From NCBI GenBank assembly GCA_012441205.1, contig GCA_012441205.1_4705.1: DNA of 64,000 nt; one strand, given 5' to 3'. The notes under the pieces are model-generated. The model saw nothing but the letters and a program-made list of their open reading frames with translations. It ran no database searches and was not told where the DNA came from. Positions 52,652-63,353 of this stretch are shown in pieces. This stretch comes from a phage. Numbering within the stretch: the first letter of the stretch is position 1; each line of letters begins with the position of its first letter. Position numbers and translations under genes: made by a program.

Positions 52652-53461
52652 TTACCAATGATTAAAGCTGCCCGCTTTAACGACATCACAACGTAGGTGG
52701 TTACGTAACTGATCCAGGAAGACAACCGGACTGTCGCCAGACAACATAGCCAGCGCGTGTTGGCCACCGGAACGAACAACAAGCTCATCGACCATTGGTG
52801 CTGTAATCGGGAGATCATACGCATCCATGATTGCTTTGGCTTCCTGTTCTACGTCTTTCTGGAACCCTTCCATCGTCGGAGAGTCATATTTGGTTGCAAA
52901 CTCGATCCCAGGCAAGTTAACGTAATCGTAAGTCATGACACGGGTCATAACACGACGGCGCTCACGTTGCCAGATCTGAGGATCGGTTAACGCGCGAACC
53001 GAAAAACACACGTTCACCAACGGCGTTTCAAAATCTTTACGTAATGGATCACCGTACGGCCCGCAAGGAATAACATCCCCCATCACCATCACGACAGGAC
53101 GACCACGACGATCGCGTCCCGCTTCTTCTAACCAAATCTTAGAAAAGCAATGGCTTACCTTCGTTTCTTCGATTCGTAACGCTCGCTGCAAAAAGCTGGT
53201 TGCATCCTGACCGATCTCTGGTTTAGGGTGACCGTATTCACCTTTCAACGAACGATTGCGTGCGTTTGTTTGCAGTAAGCTGTTTTCCAGAAACAGCGGT
53301 TTCGAACGCTCAAGTTCGTAATATTCTTCGGTATTGTTAAAACAGTTAAATCCGCCGATAACACAGGTGTAGGCACCGTCAGCATTAGGACGGATAATAC
53401 CTTTCTTATTCACACCAAGATAACTGGTGCAAACAAGATTACTAATTGGTGGTTGCATCAT
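52652..53461 (-). CDS. hypothetical protein
   Basis: 269-aa ORF. Confidence 0.5.
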   Translation of the reverse strand: MMQPPISNLVCTSYLGVNKKGIIRPNADGAYTCVIGGFNCFNNTEEYYELERSKPLFLENSLLQTNARNRSLKGEYGHPKPEIGQDATSFLQRALRIEETKVSHCFSKIWLEEAGRDRRGRPVVMVMGDVIPCGPYGDPLRKDFETPLVNVCFSVRALTDPQIWQRERRRVMTRVMTYDYVNLPGIEFATKYDSPTMEGFQKDVEQEAKAIMDAYDLPITAPMVDELVVRSGGQHALAMLSGDSPVVFLDQLRNHLRCDVVKAGSFNHW

Positions 53462-54272: not shown

Positions 54273-54983
54273 TCACCCCCTCAGAATCGCTTCTGTTTCG
54301 CTGATCGTATCCGCAGGATAAACCAAACTACTATCGATTGCGTTATTCACGTAACCACCCATTAAGTTGGTGATGGTGTTTGTACCACTATCGATAATGT
54401 TTCGTAATCCGATATCGATGGCTTTTAACGTGCTGCGTTCCTCATCCGAAAGCAAACGCCATGCTCGACGACGATCGTTGGGGTCACGTGTGGTGATAGA
54501 AGCCAGAACAGAATAGATGCTGCTATCCGCATTCAGTTTAACGCCTGCCAATTTCGCTGACGTGTAGAGCAGCTGATATTTTTCTTTCTCAGTGTACCAC
54601 CATGGCACTTTACCGAGCGTATAGATCTCGTTATACATCAGCCATGGGAAAGAGTTTCGCATCACGACATCGGTTGACACCAACACCGTGTCACCGGGAA
54701 GAAACACAAACTCATAAAACGGCTGGCCATCCATGGTAATTTCACGGATGTCAGACGGGTCGATATGGAGCTGGGTCAATGCGTGGCTGACACCATACTG
54801 ACCATCGGGAAGAATAATCGGGCAGCACGCACAAACCCGGTTCTCACTCCCGATGATAGATAAACCCAATCCCTCGTAACGGACGGGTGTCAGAATCGAA
54901 CACCCGCCACGAGTAACAACAGATTTATCTTCTTGTATGTCCCAGTCCGCAAGCACCGCAGCACCGTTGCGGACAAGCGCCAT
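54273..54983 (-). CDS. hypothetical protein
   Basis: 236-aa ORF. Confidence 0.5.
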   Translation of the reverse strand: MALVRNGAAVLADWDIQEDKSVVTRGGCSILTPVRYEGLGLSIIGSENRVCACCPIILPDGQYGVSHALTQLHIDPSDIREITMDGQPFYEFVFLPGDTVLVSTDVVMRNSFPWLMYNEIYTLGKVPWWYTEKEKYQLLYTSAKLAGVKLNADSSIYSVLASITTRDPNDRRRAWRLLSDEERSTLKAIDIGLRNIIDSGTNTITNLMGGYVNNAIDSSLVYPADTISETEAILRG

Positions 54984-56815: not shown

Positions 56816-56841
56816 GAGCAGGGGCATGAAGCCCCCTGCTC
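56816..56841 (-). terminator. hairpin after the beta-N-like gene
   Basis: 10-bp stem gagcaggggc/gccccctgctc followed by GUUUAUUUCG. Confidence 0.5.
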
Positions 56842-59800
56842 TTATTTGGCGTCGTTAAAATAAATATCAACAGCTCGTTCCGTTGCGTAGAGGAGACCAA
56901 GATTCACAGTCCCAACCACTTCCGGTGAACCGATGATACGGTTAGCGATACTGGTGCCACTGAAGATAGCATCAAGGGTGTGCCCGTCTTCGGTTTTGTT
57001 CACACCATGACCCACGGAAGAGACAACGGATTTCGCTTGAGCTGCGAAGGTACCTTTATCGCCCATCCCCGCACCAAGGTCGTAACGCATGAAAATACGG
57101 ATTGCGATCTGGTTCTCGCCTAACGGATTACCGTCTATTCTCACGTTACTGTTATTGATACGCCCCGTAGTTGCTTCGTTGAGTTTCAGTTCCTTAACGC
57201 GTTTAGCTCGCGCTTTATCTGCATCACCGACGAGCGCCGCCATGGTTTCACTCATATCCTCAATCTGAGCGCGGTACAGCACATCGATCTGTACAACTTC
57301 ACCATGAACGTCAGCACGTGGGTTATACTGACTCATACGACGTAATGCTTCAACGGCTTCCTGACTCTCATCACTCAGATCGGTCGCAATCGGTTCTTCC
57401 AGTGTTGCAAGGATCGTTCGTGGTTCAACATGATCGCCGATTTTCACGAGACCACGAATGTTGAGATGGGCGTCAACGATGAGCGTACGGCTCTTAATCG
57501 ATGGTGTTACGAGACGATCGGCAAGATTGTCGAAGATATACGAACTGTCCTCGTGAGTCTCTGGAATATCCAGAATACCGACAAGAGACAGAACACCTGC
57601 GCGCCAAACAACCTGACCTGGGTTCCACCAATCGCGTTTAAAATAAAGACGATGGAAGACCACCACATCCTGATCCTTAACGCGATCCCCGACTTTATAA
57701 TCGGTAATGAGATCGTGAGGATAATACTTACCTGGTCCTTTCCCGATTATCGTACCGAGCTGGAAAACCTCTTCCCCTAACTCTGGATCGTCGTATTGTA
57801 TCGTCAGCGCAGTTTTGGTGACCTTCTTAACAACACCGTCACCTTGGGCGGCAGCTGCAAAGAGTTTACCAACACGATGCGCGATGACAGTCTCACCGCC
57901 GGTGCGCCACGGTTGTACATCGTAACCCTCAGCGGCAATCATGCGGTTGTGTTGGATCCCGACGAAGACCAGACGTTTTCCATCATCACGGTCTACAGCC
58001 GGAACAGCTAACGCTGACGTACTCATTACCGATGAGATGCCGTCTGTCTTTTCATCGAATGGTCGTGTTTCACCATACACCGACACGATATTAGCATTAG
58101 GTGCAAGGTAAGCAGAGATACCCACATCCCCACTATCTTTCGTACCCTCTGACACAATACCAACATCGGACTTGTCGTATTCACGATCACGTGCGCGTCG
58201 AAGCGATGTCTTTGAACGACCCCCGATACCGGTCATCGTTGCTTCTTCACCCTGCTTGATATCCAGCATCGGGTTGGTTTCATCGATCACGATGGACGCG
58301 CTGTCGTCGAGAATTTGGTTCCAGACACTTACCGGACTGATTGAGATTTTCTGGCGGTTTCCTTGACTGCTGTTCTCATTCTGACGAATAGCGCCAACCA
58401 GATCCTTATACACCAATTCAGCGAACTTATCGTACGTTTTAAAACGTTGGTAGTTCACATCGTTCGTGTTAGGTGCCCAATCATCCAGAAGCAGTTCAAC
58501 AGCACGCAGTAACAACATGGCGAAATCGGTAGGTTCTCCCATGTTCTGTAGCAACGTACGGCTTACCGGATCAACGAAAAGACGCTCCATGAGTTCAAGT
58601 TCGCGTAAATGGCGAACCTTAAGTCCGGCACCATCGACAACGTTAAAATAGATATCTCGATTGTCGAAAGCACCGCGAGCGTAACCGATGTAGTTACGGT
58701 ACTCGTTAAATCCGCCCAGCAACAACGTCGTCATGCGATCGTCTTTACTGAAGATCAAACTTTCGTCATCAAAGCTCACCGCGAATTCATCGGGTGCTAG
58801 ACCCATACGAGAACCGCGAGGTACCGTACGATAGTTCGCTTTAAGATGTTCTAATAACGGGGTAAGTCCACCCAGATAACTTAGAACAACACCAACCGGA
58901 ATACGTACACCCATGAATTCAAGATCGGCGGCTTCGATCGGCATCTTAGCCGCATTGATACCGAAGAAATCAGGGAACGTCCCTACAGGTGTTGGTGTTT
59001 GTCCTGACTGACAGATATAGAGCTGATTGCGTTTATCGATTGCTAAGAATTCACCCAGCGTGTTACGCGCAAACGTCAGGAGCCCTTCGGCTAACTGTTC
59101 GTTGAACCGATCTTCCCCGATGAACTCCGGTAGCGTTTTTATATCGAGACGTATATCCCAATCAGCAAATTGGATTTGGGTATAGTTGCGTGCAAGCACA
59201 GCGAAGTAATACGGGACTTTGACGGCCGGATCAAAGACGTTACCACGTTTTAACGTGGTTAAGGGTGAGGACTTATCGTAATACATCGCTGTAAGTTGGC
59301 GTGTTAACCAACGACCGGCGTTATTAACGACACGCTCTGAACGTTTAACAAACACCTTACCGTAGGCGGTACTCAACGCAACTTCGGATGATGATACCTT
59401 TCTAATAGGTTTATCAACACGTTGTTTACGCATCCGGTATTTGATGCCGTTAACGACATAAATGCCGTCCTTACGAACCTTCGGCAACATCACCGGGAAC
59501 GTGGTTGGGACACCGCCTACAGGGGCCAGTTTAATCGTGATGACTTGATAATCCCCCATCACGTCAACAACATCTTCAACTTTATATCCCGTGACAGGGT
59601 AACCTGCCTGTTGTACGGCAACAACAGCGGCTGCGATGTCCTTTTGCATCACGTGTTCAACGTAATGTTTATCCCACACCGCAAGCGTCGATTTACATAG
59701 GCTCTTATCGACGATAACATCCGCTTCCGGCATAACCTTTGCTGGCGCTAATTTCGCGGCTTTTGGTTTAACTTCAACATACTCAGCAAGTGTTAATCCA

Positions 59801-61188
59801 GAACCGTCGGGTGCTTCGATTTCATGGATGGCGTCAGCATTACGCATCGCTGCTTTATATTGGACGCCGCTTAACTGACCCGCATCAGCCAGATCGCTCG
59901 CGCGTACCAACACCGCATCCGATAACGACTGAATATATTCACCGTGCGTTTTTGGTAACGTTGCCGCGTCAAAGACATCAACCTTTTCTTCTTCGGTATC
60001 GTCGGTAACGACTTCGAAGAGATCGTCGGTAATGTCCTGATCTTCATCAGGTTGAAAATCCGGCTGTACTTCTACCCCGGGTACTTCACGGACATCTTCG
60101 AACGAGCGTTCTACAATGGCGTTCCACGCATCAGCGTCATCGTCTTCATCCGACCCACCAACCAACTCCGCTTCTAACTCATCGGAATCAAGAACAGTGG
60201 CCAGATCCTCACCGTTAGGAAGCACGACGTCGCGATCATCGTACTCTGCATCCGGGCTGTCCGCAAGAATATCTCGCTCTTGACGAAGAACCTGTTCCTC
60301 TTCTTGTTTCTGTTCTTCTTCATTCGCGCTCTGCGACCATAGACGTGTTACCGCCATCATCCAACGACGCTGGAAGGTTTCGAGTGTCGTTTTATCGAGT
60401 TCTTCCCCTTCCTTTACAAGCCCGGTACGCCATTCTTCCAACAGGCCGAGATTCAGCGTAAAGAAGTACACACCGTCTGTAAATACAACGTTAAGCTTAT
60501 CCAGCGTGGCTCTGTCTAACGAAGCCATTGTGCTGTTCTCACGATCGGTTCCCAACCAGCGGAAGAAGTCAAAGAACGACAGCTCCTCCGGCGTGGCGAA
60601 ATTCATGAGGTTGTTACGGGTCGGTGCCTGTTGCGTGGTACGCATCAACGAAATCTTCGGCAATGTTGACGGTATACGGAACAACAAAAAGTGTTGGCGA
60701 TCGCTTTGCTGCGCGATTTCGTTGGCTTTCGACCAAATTGTTTTACGTACGTTGAACCATTCATCATACCAACGGGTGAGCGTTGGACGATAGATGTACA
60801 TGTGGTTAAGATGTGCGTAGTTAGCAACGATCTGAGCGTTGATGTTTTTCTCCACCGTACTTAGATCGGTAACCAAACGAAAACGACGATGTGACGCACG
60901 ATAATCCAATTTCGCTCGTGGGAGCTGGAATCGCTGATCACGTCGAGGTGCACCCTGTTTGGTTGCGAGATCATCAGCAAACGAAATCCATAGTTGAGCA
61001 CTTTCTTTACTCAACATGTATTCGTTTTCTGGAGGACCTATCAATGAAGGATCCGTTGCGGTGTAATGATAGACAGCATAACGTGGCAGCTGCAATAGCT
61101 GCACTAAACGTAATCTCGGTGACAATAGCTCTTGGTATCGTCTGACGCCAAACTGTCGGTAGTAATCAAGGTATTTAAGTTTTGCCAT
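56842..61188 (-). CDS. RNA polymerase beta N-terminal-like subunit with about 500-aa acidic N-terminal extension
   Basis: [14 protein letters not shown]...AGRWL matches beta [20 protein letters not shown]...RGSWL; [32 protein letters not shown] matches [43 protein letters not shown] matches LIPFLEHDDANRAL; ends after a GDK...GHTLDAIFS segment matching GDKMAGRHGNKG...GTPVDIVLNP. Confidence 0.65.
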   Translation of the reverse strand: [1448 protein letters not shown]

Positions 61189-61191
61189 GGG

Positions 61192-61371
61192 TTAGGCTCC
61201 ACGAGGTCCCGTTAAGTTGCGTAATAGGAACGCAACCGTATCGTAACCAATATCGATGTTGAATTTATTTTTACCACTTACCCAGAAAGCTCGCTTCTTG
61301 TGCGAGTTGGTAATTTCGTCAATAGCTTCCATGGAATAAAGAACGTTAACCGAGACCGTATCACCGTCGAA
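61192..61371 (-). CDS. second beta-prime N-like subunit, exon 2 (FDGDTVSVNV...)
   Basis: in-frame continuation after the intron; FDGD-TVSVNVLYSMEA matches FDGD-QMAVHVPLTLEA; stop lies 3 nt before the beta-N-like start. Confidence 0.55.
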   Translation of the reverse strand, partial: FDGDTVSVNVLYSMEAIDEITNSHKKRAFWVSGKNKFNIDIGYDTVAFLLRNLTGPRGA

Positions 61372-63353
61372 CCTTATCTTCGCCTCAGGTCGCTACGCTG
61401 AGACCGCCTGCATGGATACGTACATCACAGGCTGCTTGCACTTTCATGCAAGAGGAGACTATATCAAACCGGCAGCACAACCTGCTACGGTAACCTACAC
61501 TTCGAAGACGCTCGTCCTCTACAGGGTGGTAAATCCCTTAGTCGTTGAACCTGCGTTGTTTCCCATTCTTGCAAACAAGAATGCCGTATTGCTACGCAAC
61601 AACCAGGCTGCTGATTGCCCATTGTTTCGCACCTTAGCACCGCTTACGCGGCTTTTCTTTCAGCCTAAGCCTCTTACGGAGTTAGTGCATCTCAACTGTT
61701 GTTTCTGCCTTTCGGCACCTCATGGGTCGTTGAGCTTTAGGGGTTCCCAGCAATTCGTAGGTTTTTCAAGCACTCCCTTTCGGGAATACCGGACTCATTA
61801 TTAGCTTATTTATTCAAGTATCTGAAATCCCACTTATCTTTACGTCGTTTATCGCACTTAATGTCAGGATGATTAACACGATGCCTAATAGTTGTTGCCG
61901 ATAGCTGGCTGAGATTCTCAGCAGATCGTGCGCCAAGAACAACGAGTTTTGTGTCGTCTGGACGCGTAACTTCTACTGCCCGATAATGCTTACGTAACAC
62001 ATCACGCCAATATTCACGACGTTCTGGTTCAGCATACTCAAGCATGTAACCGTTAACATCTACTAAACCGTAGCTTTCGTTTAATCGAGAGGTAGCGGCT
62101 GGTTTACTAATACCGATTGCTTTAGCCGCATCGACCACGGTTTTATACGGGGTCTCATTACCGTCTCTATCTACAACCACAATGAAATCTGGACGTGAAT
62201 CGAGTAGCTGCTGTCTGCGTTCGACGGCTTGTTGATGAAGCACCATGTTAACGTGTTCGAACCCGTAACCTTCTGGGCCACGCCATCCTGGATTGTTGTT
62301 CGCTCGATAAAGTATCGTCGATGATTTCACTCCAGTCTGACGCGATGCCTCGTTTGCGCTATGAACAACCGTGGTAGAGCCATCAGGATGATATATCCGT
62401 ATCTGGTTCATTATACCGGAACCAATGAAGTTACCATCGGCTGATTTAATGTCCGGCCATGGTTGCGGGTCATCTTTGAATTTAACCACCCAGCGGTTGT
62501 TAAACAGCTTAACTTTTCGAACATGTTTGCCTAATGTCGTATCCGTAACACCTGCGACCACTGACGCTTGTGTAATGCTCAGGTACTCAGTAACGGTATC
62601 GTTCCAAGTATCCCAGAGCAGAACCGGTTTATTGTCGTCACGTAAACCATGTTCGATAGCATGCAGGACATTACGACTTCTGGTTGCCCATTCCAGATTG
62701 TCAAGAGAATAGTTCCACTTATCAGCATCAAGATGATTAACGTCCATCTTATCGACATTAGCCGGATATTCCCGCCACGCCAACATCAAGCAGCGATGTA
62801 AAACCTTAGTTCTCGTTGTATCTCGACAATCGTGACGTAGACTAATGAATACGTAGTTATCCTTTTTCGGATACGATCTGCATTCCTGTCCATCCTTGCG
62901 GGAGATAACTCGCCCTTTCTCATTTATCAGATAACGAGTATGTCCAGGAATAACACGATAACCAGGGTACTTAGCGATCTCATAAGCAGGCTCGAAACGA
63001 TAGGATAAGTTATCAACATCCCAATTAGATTCGTCGCCGTCAACAAACATCGCTTTGACGTACTTCTGTGTTTCAATATCAACCAGGATGTTTTTGTGTG
63101 CGATACAAATCAATGCTGGGATATTGAATTCGCGACCAGCTAAAGTAACAGTGTCGCCGTTTCTCGGTATCGCGACGTGGGTATCACGATACCGTAAGTT
63201 TCCATAGCCGTCTATTTCAATCCAGCTCAGAAACGGAATAGATATAAATTCTTTTTCAGATACTCGCCATTTAAACATATTAACACCTATTAAATAGGAA
63301 ACATCATATTAATAGGTTTAAAAGTTAAAAATGACAGAAAATGGCTAAATTGA
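61372..63353 (-). mobile_element. group I intron 3 (about 1.98 kb) carrying an HNH endonuclease ORF
   Basis: 5' end GAU|UCAAUUUAG... with a 6-bp P1 candidate (GAUUCA/UGAGUC) that includes U.G at the splice site; core after the ORF has P GAATTGCTGGG, Q AATCAGCAGC, R GTTCAACGACTA, S GATATAGTCTCC with P7 GACUA/UAGUC; GNRA-loop P9-like hairpin; 3' end GAAGATAAGG| before TTC. Confidence 0.65.
61806..63278 (-). CDS. HNH homing endonuclease (intron-encoded)
   Basis: VNHLDADKWNYSLDNLEWATRSRNVLHA is a classic HNH motif; own AGGTG RBS; lies between the intron 5' splice site and the ribozyme core. Confidence 0.7.
   Translation of the reverse strand: MFKWRVSEKEFISIPFLSWIEIDGYGNLRYRDTHVAIPRNGDTVTLAGREFNIPALICIAHKNILVDIETQKYVKAMFVDGDESNWDVDNLSYRFEPAYEIAKYPGYRVIPGHTRYLINEKGRVISRKDGQECRSYPKKDNYVFISLRHDCRDTTRTKVLHRCLMLAWREYPANVDKMDVNHLDADKWNYSLDNLEWATRSRNVLHAIEHGLRDDNKPVLLWDTWNDTVTEYLSITQASVVAGVTDTTLGKHVRKVKLFNNRWVVKFKDDPQPWPDIKSADGNFIGSGIMNQIRIYHPDGSTTVVHSANEASRQTGVKSSTILYRANNNPGWRGPEGYGFEHVNMVLHQQAVERRQQLLDSRPDFIVVVDRDGNETPYKTVVDAAKAIGISKPAATSRLNESYGLVDVNGYMLEYAEPERREYWRDVLRKHYRAVEVTRPDDTKLVVLGARSAENLSQLSATTIRHRVNHPDIKCDKRRKDKWDFRYLNK

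Follow-up and report, generated by a model that had tools for sequence, protein, structure and literature searches.

The N-terminal extension of a jumbo-phage virion RNA polymerase beta-N subunit: predicted anatomy, distribution and possible role in virion assembly

The beta-N gene and its product

The 64,000-nucleotide stretch of phage DNA analysed here (GenBank assembly GCA_012441205.1, contig GCA_012441205.1_4705.1; referred to below as the window) contains at positions 56842..61188 of its minus strand a gene whose product was considered, in a preliminary description made from the sequence alone, to be a beta-N-like RNA polymerase subunit with an acidic N-terminal extension of about 500 residues. 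Judged by its sequence relationships, the protein is the beta-N subunit of a virion RNA polymerase (vRNAP) that has five subunits and belongs to a chimallivirus of the Goslar type; every feature of the family that could be looked for was found. vRNAP is packed in the capsid, injected with the DNA and transcribes the early genes. In phage Goslar it consists of gp78, gp196, gp205, gp207 and gp210, all of which were detected in virions; for gp207, mass spectrometry identified 47 peptides that cover 46.6% of the sequence (bioRxiv 10.64898/2026.04.21.720040). Alignments and structure prediction divide the extension of the beta-N subunit into three modules: a basic folded domain, a predicted, mostly disordered acidic linker and a conserved helical segment. 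The gene and its parts are as follows.

56842..61188, minus strand: vRNAP beta-N open reading frame (ORF), complete, 1448 aa and stop (ORF list; Goslar; PHROG 3148)
60334..61188, minus strand: N-terminal domain (NTD), aa 1-285; basic, with an alpha/beta fold confined to vRNAP beta
59932..60333, minus strand: acidic linker, aa 286-419 (composition, AlphaFold2 confidence, alignment of 91 homologues)
59659..59931, minus strand: conserved helical segment, aa 420-510 (conservation and AlphaFold2; no bacterial counterpart)
56845..59658, minus strand: beta-homologous core, aa 511-1448 (beta1 and later domains, fork-loop, GDKGTF)
61197..61200, minus strand: Shine-Dalgarno-like GGAG, 8 nt 5' of the ATG (read from the sequence)
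56816..56841, minus strand: intrinsic-terminator-like hairpin, 9 bp stem with 7 G-C pairs and a T-rich tail (terminator scan)

The gene shares 96.1% nucleotide identity with gp207 of Escherichia phage Goslar over 100% of its length, and the two proteins are 99.3% identical over aa 1-560. The profile of PHROG 3148 ('RNA polymerase beta subunit') was matched with E=0, aa 4-1443 aligning with profile positions 2-1420 of 1424. Amino acid identity with the phiKZ, RAY, SPN3US-like, RP12 and VP4B orthologues was 26-33% over the full length. The orthologues in the better known phages are Goslar gp207, phiKZ gp178, SPN3US gp241, 201phi2-1 gp273/274 and RAY gp164; in the phiKZ-like phage fnug the orthologue of phiKZ gp178 has 1451 aa.

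For comparison with the beta subunit of Thermus RNA polymerase a profile was built from eight beta-N orthologues. Profile positions 558-580 (read off as window aa 568-590) matched Thermus beta 118-140, positions 959-1027 matched 395-464, positions 1040-1165 matched 535-656 (E 7.5e-11) and positions 1347-1404 matched 821-880. All of these matches were collinear, with an offset of ~450 residues between the phage and the Thermus numbering, and together with the PHROG and Goslar matches they bear out the beta-N-like assignment. The fork-loop region (ETNPML..) lies at aa 970 and the GDKGTF motif at aa 1376 of 1448; in the alignment the latter corresponds to Thermus beta 821-880. The protein ends soon after this motif, and the sequence indicates that a separate beta-C subunit supplies the remainder of beta. 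Inspection by eye puts the beginning of beta-like sequence at about aa 510-540, in agreement with the onset near residue 540 that had been proposed. A Pfam scan of the whole protein returned no family at E<=1, phmmer against the PDB sequences returned one chance-level match only, and hhalign of the family profile against an approximate E. coli beta N-terminus aligned the fork-loop region only, so that this comparison did not place the start of the homology.

With an extension of this size it has to be considered that the annotated start might be spurious, the true start lying near the beta homology and the upstream 500 codons being untranslated in beta-N, which the preliminary description had named as the finding that would overturn its reading. 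Such an annotation artefact is extremely improbable and is refuted by several observations. The ORF is uninterrupted over its 1448 codons, its ATG (61188) is preceded by the Shine-Dalgarno-like GGAG, and frame translation places an in-frame TAA two codons 5' of the ATG, so that a longer reading frame is impossible. Divergent orthologues align from residue 1 onward in an alignment of 12 sequences, and the PHROG 3148 match starts at aa 4. Relative to Goslar, the whole gene has 157 synonymous and 7 nonsynonymous codon changes; broken down by region (synonymous/nonsynonymous) they number 23/1 (NTD), 11/3 (linker) and 12/0 (aa 420-510), giving 46 synonymous and 4 nonsynonymous differences over aa 1-510. 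This bias indicates that the gene is under purifying selection. In SPN3US, the orthologue gp241 is reported to be unprocessed, and the listing of virion proteins gives it the complete predicted mass, 159 kDa (PMC5694885). The start codon is, on these sequence criteria, genuine.

The second exon of the upstream beta'-N gene (see below) shares its reading frame with the beta-N ORF, and only TAA CCC (61189..61194, minus strand) stands between them. Because fnug, a phiKZ-like phage, has the two genes in different frames, this spacing probably reflects incidental tight coupling and not programmed readthrough. The terminator-like hairpin at 56816..56841 lies directly 3' of the beta-N stop codon, and in Goslar this element bears a terminator annotation.

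Anatomy and distribution of the N-terminal extension

The anatomy was derived from alignments of 12 and of 91 homologues and from an AlphaFold2 model computed on the 91-sequence alignment (mean predicted local distance difference test score, pLDDT, 83.4), which replaced an earlier, poor model made from 5 sequences (pLDDT 54.5). By the Thermus alignment and the homologue alignments, the extension relative to bacterial beta amounts to ~450-500 residues. The size given in the preliminary description is thus about right, and its statement that a long part of the protein has no counterpart in bacterial beta holds as well: there are ~450 surplus residues relative to Thermus beta, with no Pfam or PDB relative. 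What did not stand is the acidic character of the extension as a whole, since only aa ~286-419, about a quarter of it, are acidic and aa 1-285 are basic.

The NTD (aa 1-285) has a pI of 9.6 and is predicted with a pLDDT of ~95 to have an alpha/beta fold, after which comes a long helix (266-309). Its near-invariant residues include P24, P35, H41, G79, P81, Y133, W144, N146, R164, P173 and P177. Most of the 91 homologues likewise have a basic NTD, the net charge ranging from 0 to +21 with a median of +9.

In the linker 48 of the 134 residues are D or E (36%), which gives a pI of 4.05 and a net charge of -40. Compared with the rest of the protein the binomial tail for this composition is 1e-11, and in 2000 shuffles the largest number of D/E found in any 134-residue window was 39. 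The three acidic strings that had been quoted from the sequence are indeed present, at aa 290, 347 (DEDDDADAW) and 396 (DDTEEE). The first ~24 residues of the linker extend the long helix 266-309; from about aa 310 the linker is predicted to be disordered, with pLDDT values of 37-64 and low column conservation for aa 310-415. In the 91 homologues the linker varies in length from 67 to 227 aa, in D+E content from 17 to 42% and in net charge from -11 to -57 (median -22), yet it is acidic in all 91 although its sequence is poorly conserved. Conservation of charge without conservation of sequence argues for selection on a physical property of the linker.

Conservation picks up again at aa ~421. 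The segment aa 420-510 is predicted with pLDDT values of ~81-96 and contains helices 422-435 and 441-451 and the beginning of helix 502-528, which lead into the beta1 strands; the composition of aa 421-560 is unremarkable. Structure prediction and comparison with homologues, both of which the preliminary description had proposed as checks, thus agree on a folded NTD, a linker disordered beyond aa 310 and helices in 420-510, and the extension is a family-wide trait, not one peculiar to this phage.

A tblastn search with aa 1-560 found 247 jumbo-phage records, mostly aligned in two pieces that skip the linker. When a profile of the NTD alone was run with HMMER over the cluster representatives of 1.84 billion proteins, it matched 977 clusters at 50% identity (522 of them at E<=1e-30). 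In the best 150 of these 977 the domain occupied residues 1 to ~285 and was always N-terminal, and the host proteins had ~1400-1490, 1030-1115 or 540-640 aa. Those shorter matches that were examined turned out to be fragments or first exons of intron-split genes. Word-index searches with the full-length protein, with the alignment of aa 1-620 and with the NTD alignment returned 5 proteins; the acidic low-complexity words may flood such an index. No paralogue of the NTD was found among all 336 ORFs of the window.

Foldseek comparison of the model with the PDB gave nothing at E<=1e-3. The best matches were confined to that end of the model where beta1 lies (76 columns for 8que_E, from the phiKZ non-virion RNA polymerase, and 68 for E. 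coli beta), and the phiKZ non-virion enzyme entries 8que, 9rjs and 7ogr were matched through chain E alone, over 76-86 columns; judged by the beta1 match, chain E is presumably the beta-N-like subunit. For aa 1-500 neither phmmer nor Foldseek found a PDB relative in sequence or fold. In the BFVD viral structure library all 12 significant matches were jumbo-phage proteins of matching length and architecture, those with names were all RNA polymerase subunits (including one of Bacillus phage PBS1), and these matches are presumably vRNAP beta. The N-terminal module is old, is confined to virion-type beta subunits and has no recognisable relative.

The charge pattern raises the question whether the extension serves transcription directly. 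The linker could be a DNA mimic that occupies the polymerase channel and prevents the enzyme from acting in the producing cell and within the DNA-filled capsid, and the basic NTD could bind DNA or provide promoter specificity. A net charge of -40 over 134 residues, an acidity kept in all 91 homologues without sequence conservation and a basic NTD (median net charge +9) speak for this explanation, and vRNAP, which consists of five beta/beta' fragments, has no gp68-like fifth subunit (PMC5105663, PMC8287921). The sigma-like gp68 gives the phiKZ non-virion RNA polymerase its promoter specificity. A precedent for the proposed function of the linker is region 1.1 of sigma70, an acidic N-terminal DNA mimic that sits in the RNA polymerase channel. 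Like the linker it is an acidic N-terminal element on a component of a multisubunit RNA polymerase, but it belongs to sigma and is a small folded helical domain, and no similarity to it in sequence or fold was found. Nor does the extension look like gp68 fused to beta: no sigma or gp68 chain was among the listed fold matches, parts of gp68 not being confidently modelled in the published structure. The DNA-mimic idea, which the preliminary description had also raised, has nothing but net charge in its favour; the PDB fold searches found no sigma-like fold, and acidity alone is typical of many disordered spacers. In addition, the first 275 residues are already gone in 201phi2-1 by the time the enzyme is put to use (PMC5694885), so that the NTD cannot be an obligatory promoter-recognition module. 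On balance, control of DNA binding, by a mimic in the linker and a DNA- or promoter-binding NTD, seems an unlikely explanation of the extension.

The interrupted beta'-N gene and the gene neighbourhood

Upstream of beta-N the gene for the beta'-N subunit is split by an intron, and two further genes relevant to the virion lie downstream.

63354 to beyond 64000, minus strand: vRNAP beta'-N exon 1 (PHROG 2986 positions 276-484)
61372..63353, minus strand: group I intron of beta'-N, 1982 nt (RF00028 core 61435..61821, 57.8 bits)
61806..63278, minus strand: HNH homing-endonuclease ORF, 490 aa (PHROG 59, E 1.5e-28; Goslar gp206)
61192..61371, minus strand: vRNAP beta'-N exon 2 (FDGDTVSVNVLYS...PRGA, stop; PHROG 2986 positions 485-538), its TAA 3 nt before the beta-N ATG
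54273..54983, minus strand: fifth vRNAP subunit (Goslar gp210; gp176-like beta'-C candidate; PHROG 2926), 1.9 kb downstream of beta-N
52652..53461, minus strand: prohead maturation protease (PHROG 3014), 3.4 kb downstream of beta-N

The gene order beta'-N, beta-N, phiKZ gp177-like, gp176-like (beta'-C) and prohead protease is conserved. The beta-N gene was directly downstream of the beta'-N gene in all orthologues examined, and the downstream order was checked in Goslar, in the phiKZ-like phage fnug and in 201phi2-1, where the available stretch reaches far enough. The neighbours in the window match PHROG 2986, 3841, 2926 and 3014. The arrangement of the beta'-C candidate and the protease agrees with a block of syntenic head genes reported from SPN3US, phiKZ and 201phi2-1.

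The intron interrupts beta'-N (Goslar gp205) inside the catalytic DFDGD motif: exon 1 ends with ...APYLAGLGGD and exon 2 opens with FDGDTVSVNVLYS. At the level of the junction, exon 1 ends with GGD (last base T), the intron ends with G and exon 2 starts with FDGDTVSV; the spliced frame is continuous. Exon 2 was assigned also by alignment to the uninterrupted phiKZ gp180 and RAY gp163. The HNH ORF occupies the 5' part of the intron, its last 16 nt overlapping the start of the ribozyme core; Goslar gp206 is annotated as similar to phiKZ ORF179. In the Goslar record NC_048170 the annotated gp205 (L001 8307..9815) runs past the 5' splice site into the intron, where it ends with ...GGDQGKANKMPVFWQI and a stop codon, and exon 2 is omitted; the annotated protein therefore does not contain the catalytic DFDGD aspartates. 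Goslar does contain the sequence of exon 2, from about L001 position 11818 onward.

The beta-N gene of the window is free of introns; group I introns are found in the beta-N genes of 201phi2-1, BUCT660, MIZ-Pa99 and a metagenomic contig (L011), and in these relatives they sit at conserved motifs. In L011 553..4649, which carries the protein P0005, beta-N is broken within the conserved RMRKQR / PI(R/V)KV motif (window aa ~590); the interrupting stretch contains a group I intron (RF00028, whose 36.7 bits do not reach the gathering score) together with a DUF723 ORF. Of the best 150 of the 977 NTD matches, about a third fall in the class of 540-640 aa, and this class may, to judge from the one example of P0005, reflect a common site of intron insertion. 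The possibility that short proteins are free-standing NTDs was rejected for P0012, which is cut by a contig end, and P0005, the one protein looked at in the class of ~600 aa, is the first exon of an intron-split gene. Apart from the missing intron there is no essential difference between the window protein and other jumbo-phage vRNAP beta-N subunits, which share a common length class of 1401-1527 aa, the order NTD, acidic linker and beta core ending after GDK, and the same neighbourhood. It is an ordinary member of its family with a feature that is already known.

Possible roles of the extension

Of the functions that can be envisaged for the N-terminal module, a role in virion assembly rather than in catalysis appears somewhat better than an even chance (roughly 0.55), a judgement that draws mainly on published work with orthologues. 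The packaging or targeting function suggested in the preliminary description corresponds to the leading hypothesis and has already been published for SPN3US: gp241 has a non-beta N-terminal domain of ~400 residues, which was hypothesised to target the pre-assembled vRNAP into the prohead (PMC5105663). Virions of the amber mutant SPN3US 241(am11) are without all five vRNAP subunits (Thomas et al. 2016, PMC5105663), and in phiKZ capsid assembly is disrupted when the gene for gp178 is nicked (Birkholz et al. 2024, PMC11620839). The 201phi2-1 orthologue loses a 275-residue N-terminal propeptide by cleavage at TFE-275 (Ali et al. 2017, PMC5694885). Removal of the propeptide means that in this phage the NTD is dispensable after assembly, which supports a packaging or targeting role indirectly. 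In the proposed mechanism, the NTD would dock or tether the polymerase, pre-assembled in the cytoplasm, inside the prohead; the spacer formed by the acidic linker would be flexible and repel DNA; and in some lineages the linker may offer an accessible place where the prohead protease cuts the NTD off.

Several points weigh against an assembly role. The Foldseek searches against the PDB gave no functional clue. The domain is kept in mature SPN3US virions, and phiKZ gp178 is probably unprocessed too (PMC5694885); retention of the domain in SPN3US leaves room for a role after injection. The parallel with the 201phi2-1 propeptide is likewise incomplete. The NTD of the window protein is homologous and of similar size, a candidate protease motif lies at the domain boundary and a protease gene is nearby, but the SPN3US orthologue is uncut (PMC5694885), and TLE268-270, which aligns with TFE-275 in the 12-sequence alignment and is followed by ANE288-290, lies in a poorly conserved, variable insertion that is present in 3 and absent from 88 of the 91 homologues. 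Conservation of the 201phi2-1 cleavage motif was rejected for this reason. Candidate protease motifs of the form (S/A/G/T)-X-E are frequent in acidic sequence. Long propeptides occur also in the portal protein and the internal head proteins of giant phages.

That mature SPN3US virions keep the domain (PMC5694885) would fit a function in ejection or early infection, in which the NTD and linker form an easily unfolded leading end for threading through the tail tube, or an element for refolding or for anchoring that holds the polymerase to the injected DNA inside the early-infection vesicle. vRNAP must cross the narrow tail tube and then reassemble (PMC5105663), and injected vRNAP co-localises with the injected DNA (PMC10612078); conservation of a long disordered segment is consistent with it as well. 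Yet 201phi2-1 virions are infectious without the first 275 residues (PMC5694885), no membrane-binding or translocation motif was seen in the extension, and the computed results do not separate this function from one in assembly. We regard it as doubtful. It is also conceivable, if quite improbable, that the extension is a dual-purpose switch, the NTD nucleating or anchoring vRNAP on the prohead core and the linker, as an intramolecular DNA mimic in the DNA channel, silencing the enzyme until ejection or proteolysis; if true, this could explain why damage to phiKZ gp178 leads to failure of capsid assembly.

An assembly role would have functional parallels in other phages. The capsid targeting sequences (CTS) carried by the internal proteins of T4 and by Alt are N-terminal, direct their proteins to the prohead and, as may happen here, are removed by a protease (PMC5694885). 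They are, in contrast, 10-20 residues long and unstructured, whereas the module described here comprises a 285-residue folded domain (pLDDT ~95) and a 130-residue linker, and it would carry in a pre-assembled five-subunit enzyme, unlike the passengers of the T4 CTS. There is no sequence relationship, and the window module does not have the hallmarks of a CTS, so that the likeness is one of functional analogy only. In the vRNAP of coliphage N4 the regions flanking the polymerase serve encapsidation and injection. That enzyme, a single subunit of ~3500 aa, is packaged and injected and has its catalytic part between large non-polymerase regions (PMC13434306); its core is of the T7-like single-subunit type, not beta/beta', and no homology to the NTD was detected in the fold searches.

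Published work on SPN3US, 201phi2-1 and phiKZ already contains the non-beta domain, the possibility that it is removed as a propeptide, and the hypothesis of head targeting. A 2026 review describes vRNAP by subunit composition only (PMC13282480), and no vRNAP structure was found in the literature. The present analysis adds to this the three-part anatomy, with a linker whose charge is conserved without its sequence and the helical segment that follows it, the restriction of the NTD to vRNAP beta across about a thousand protein clusters, and a confident structure model without PDB relatives. In the nucleus-forming jumbo phages a multisubunit polymerase of ~400 kDa has to be loaded into the capsid, pass the narrow tail and restart in the host. 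A beta-N module specific to vRNAP is an obvious candidate for the handle by which the enzyme is loaded into the capsid, and the three-part anatomy provides clean construct boundaries for deletion and fusion work.

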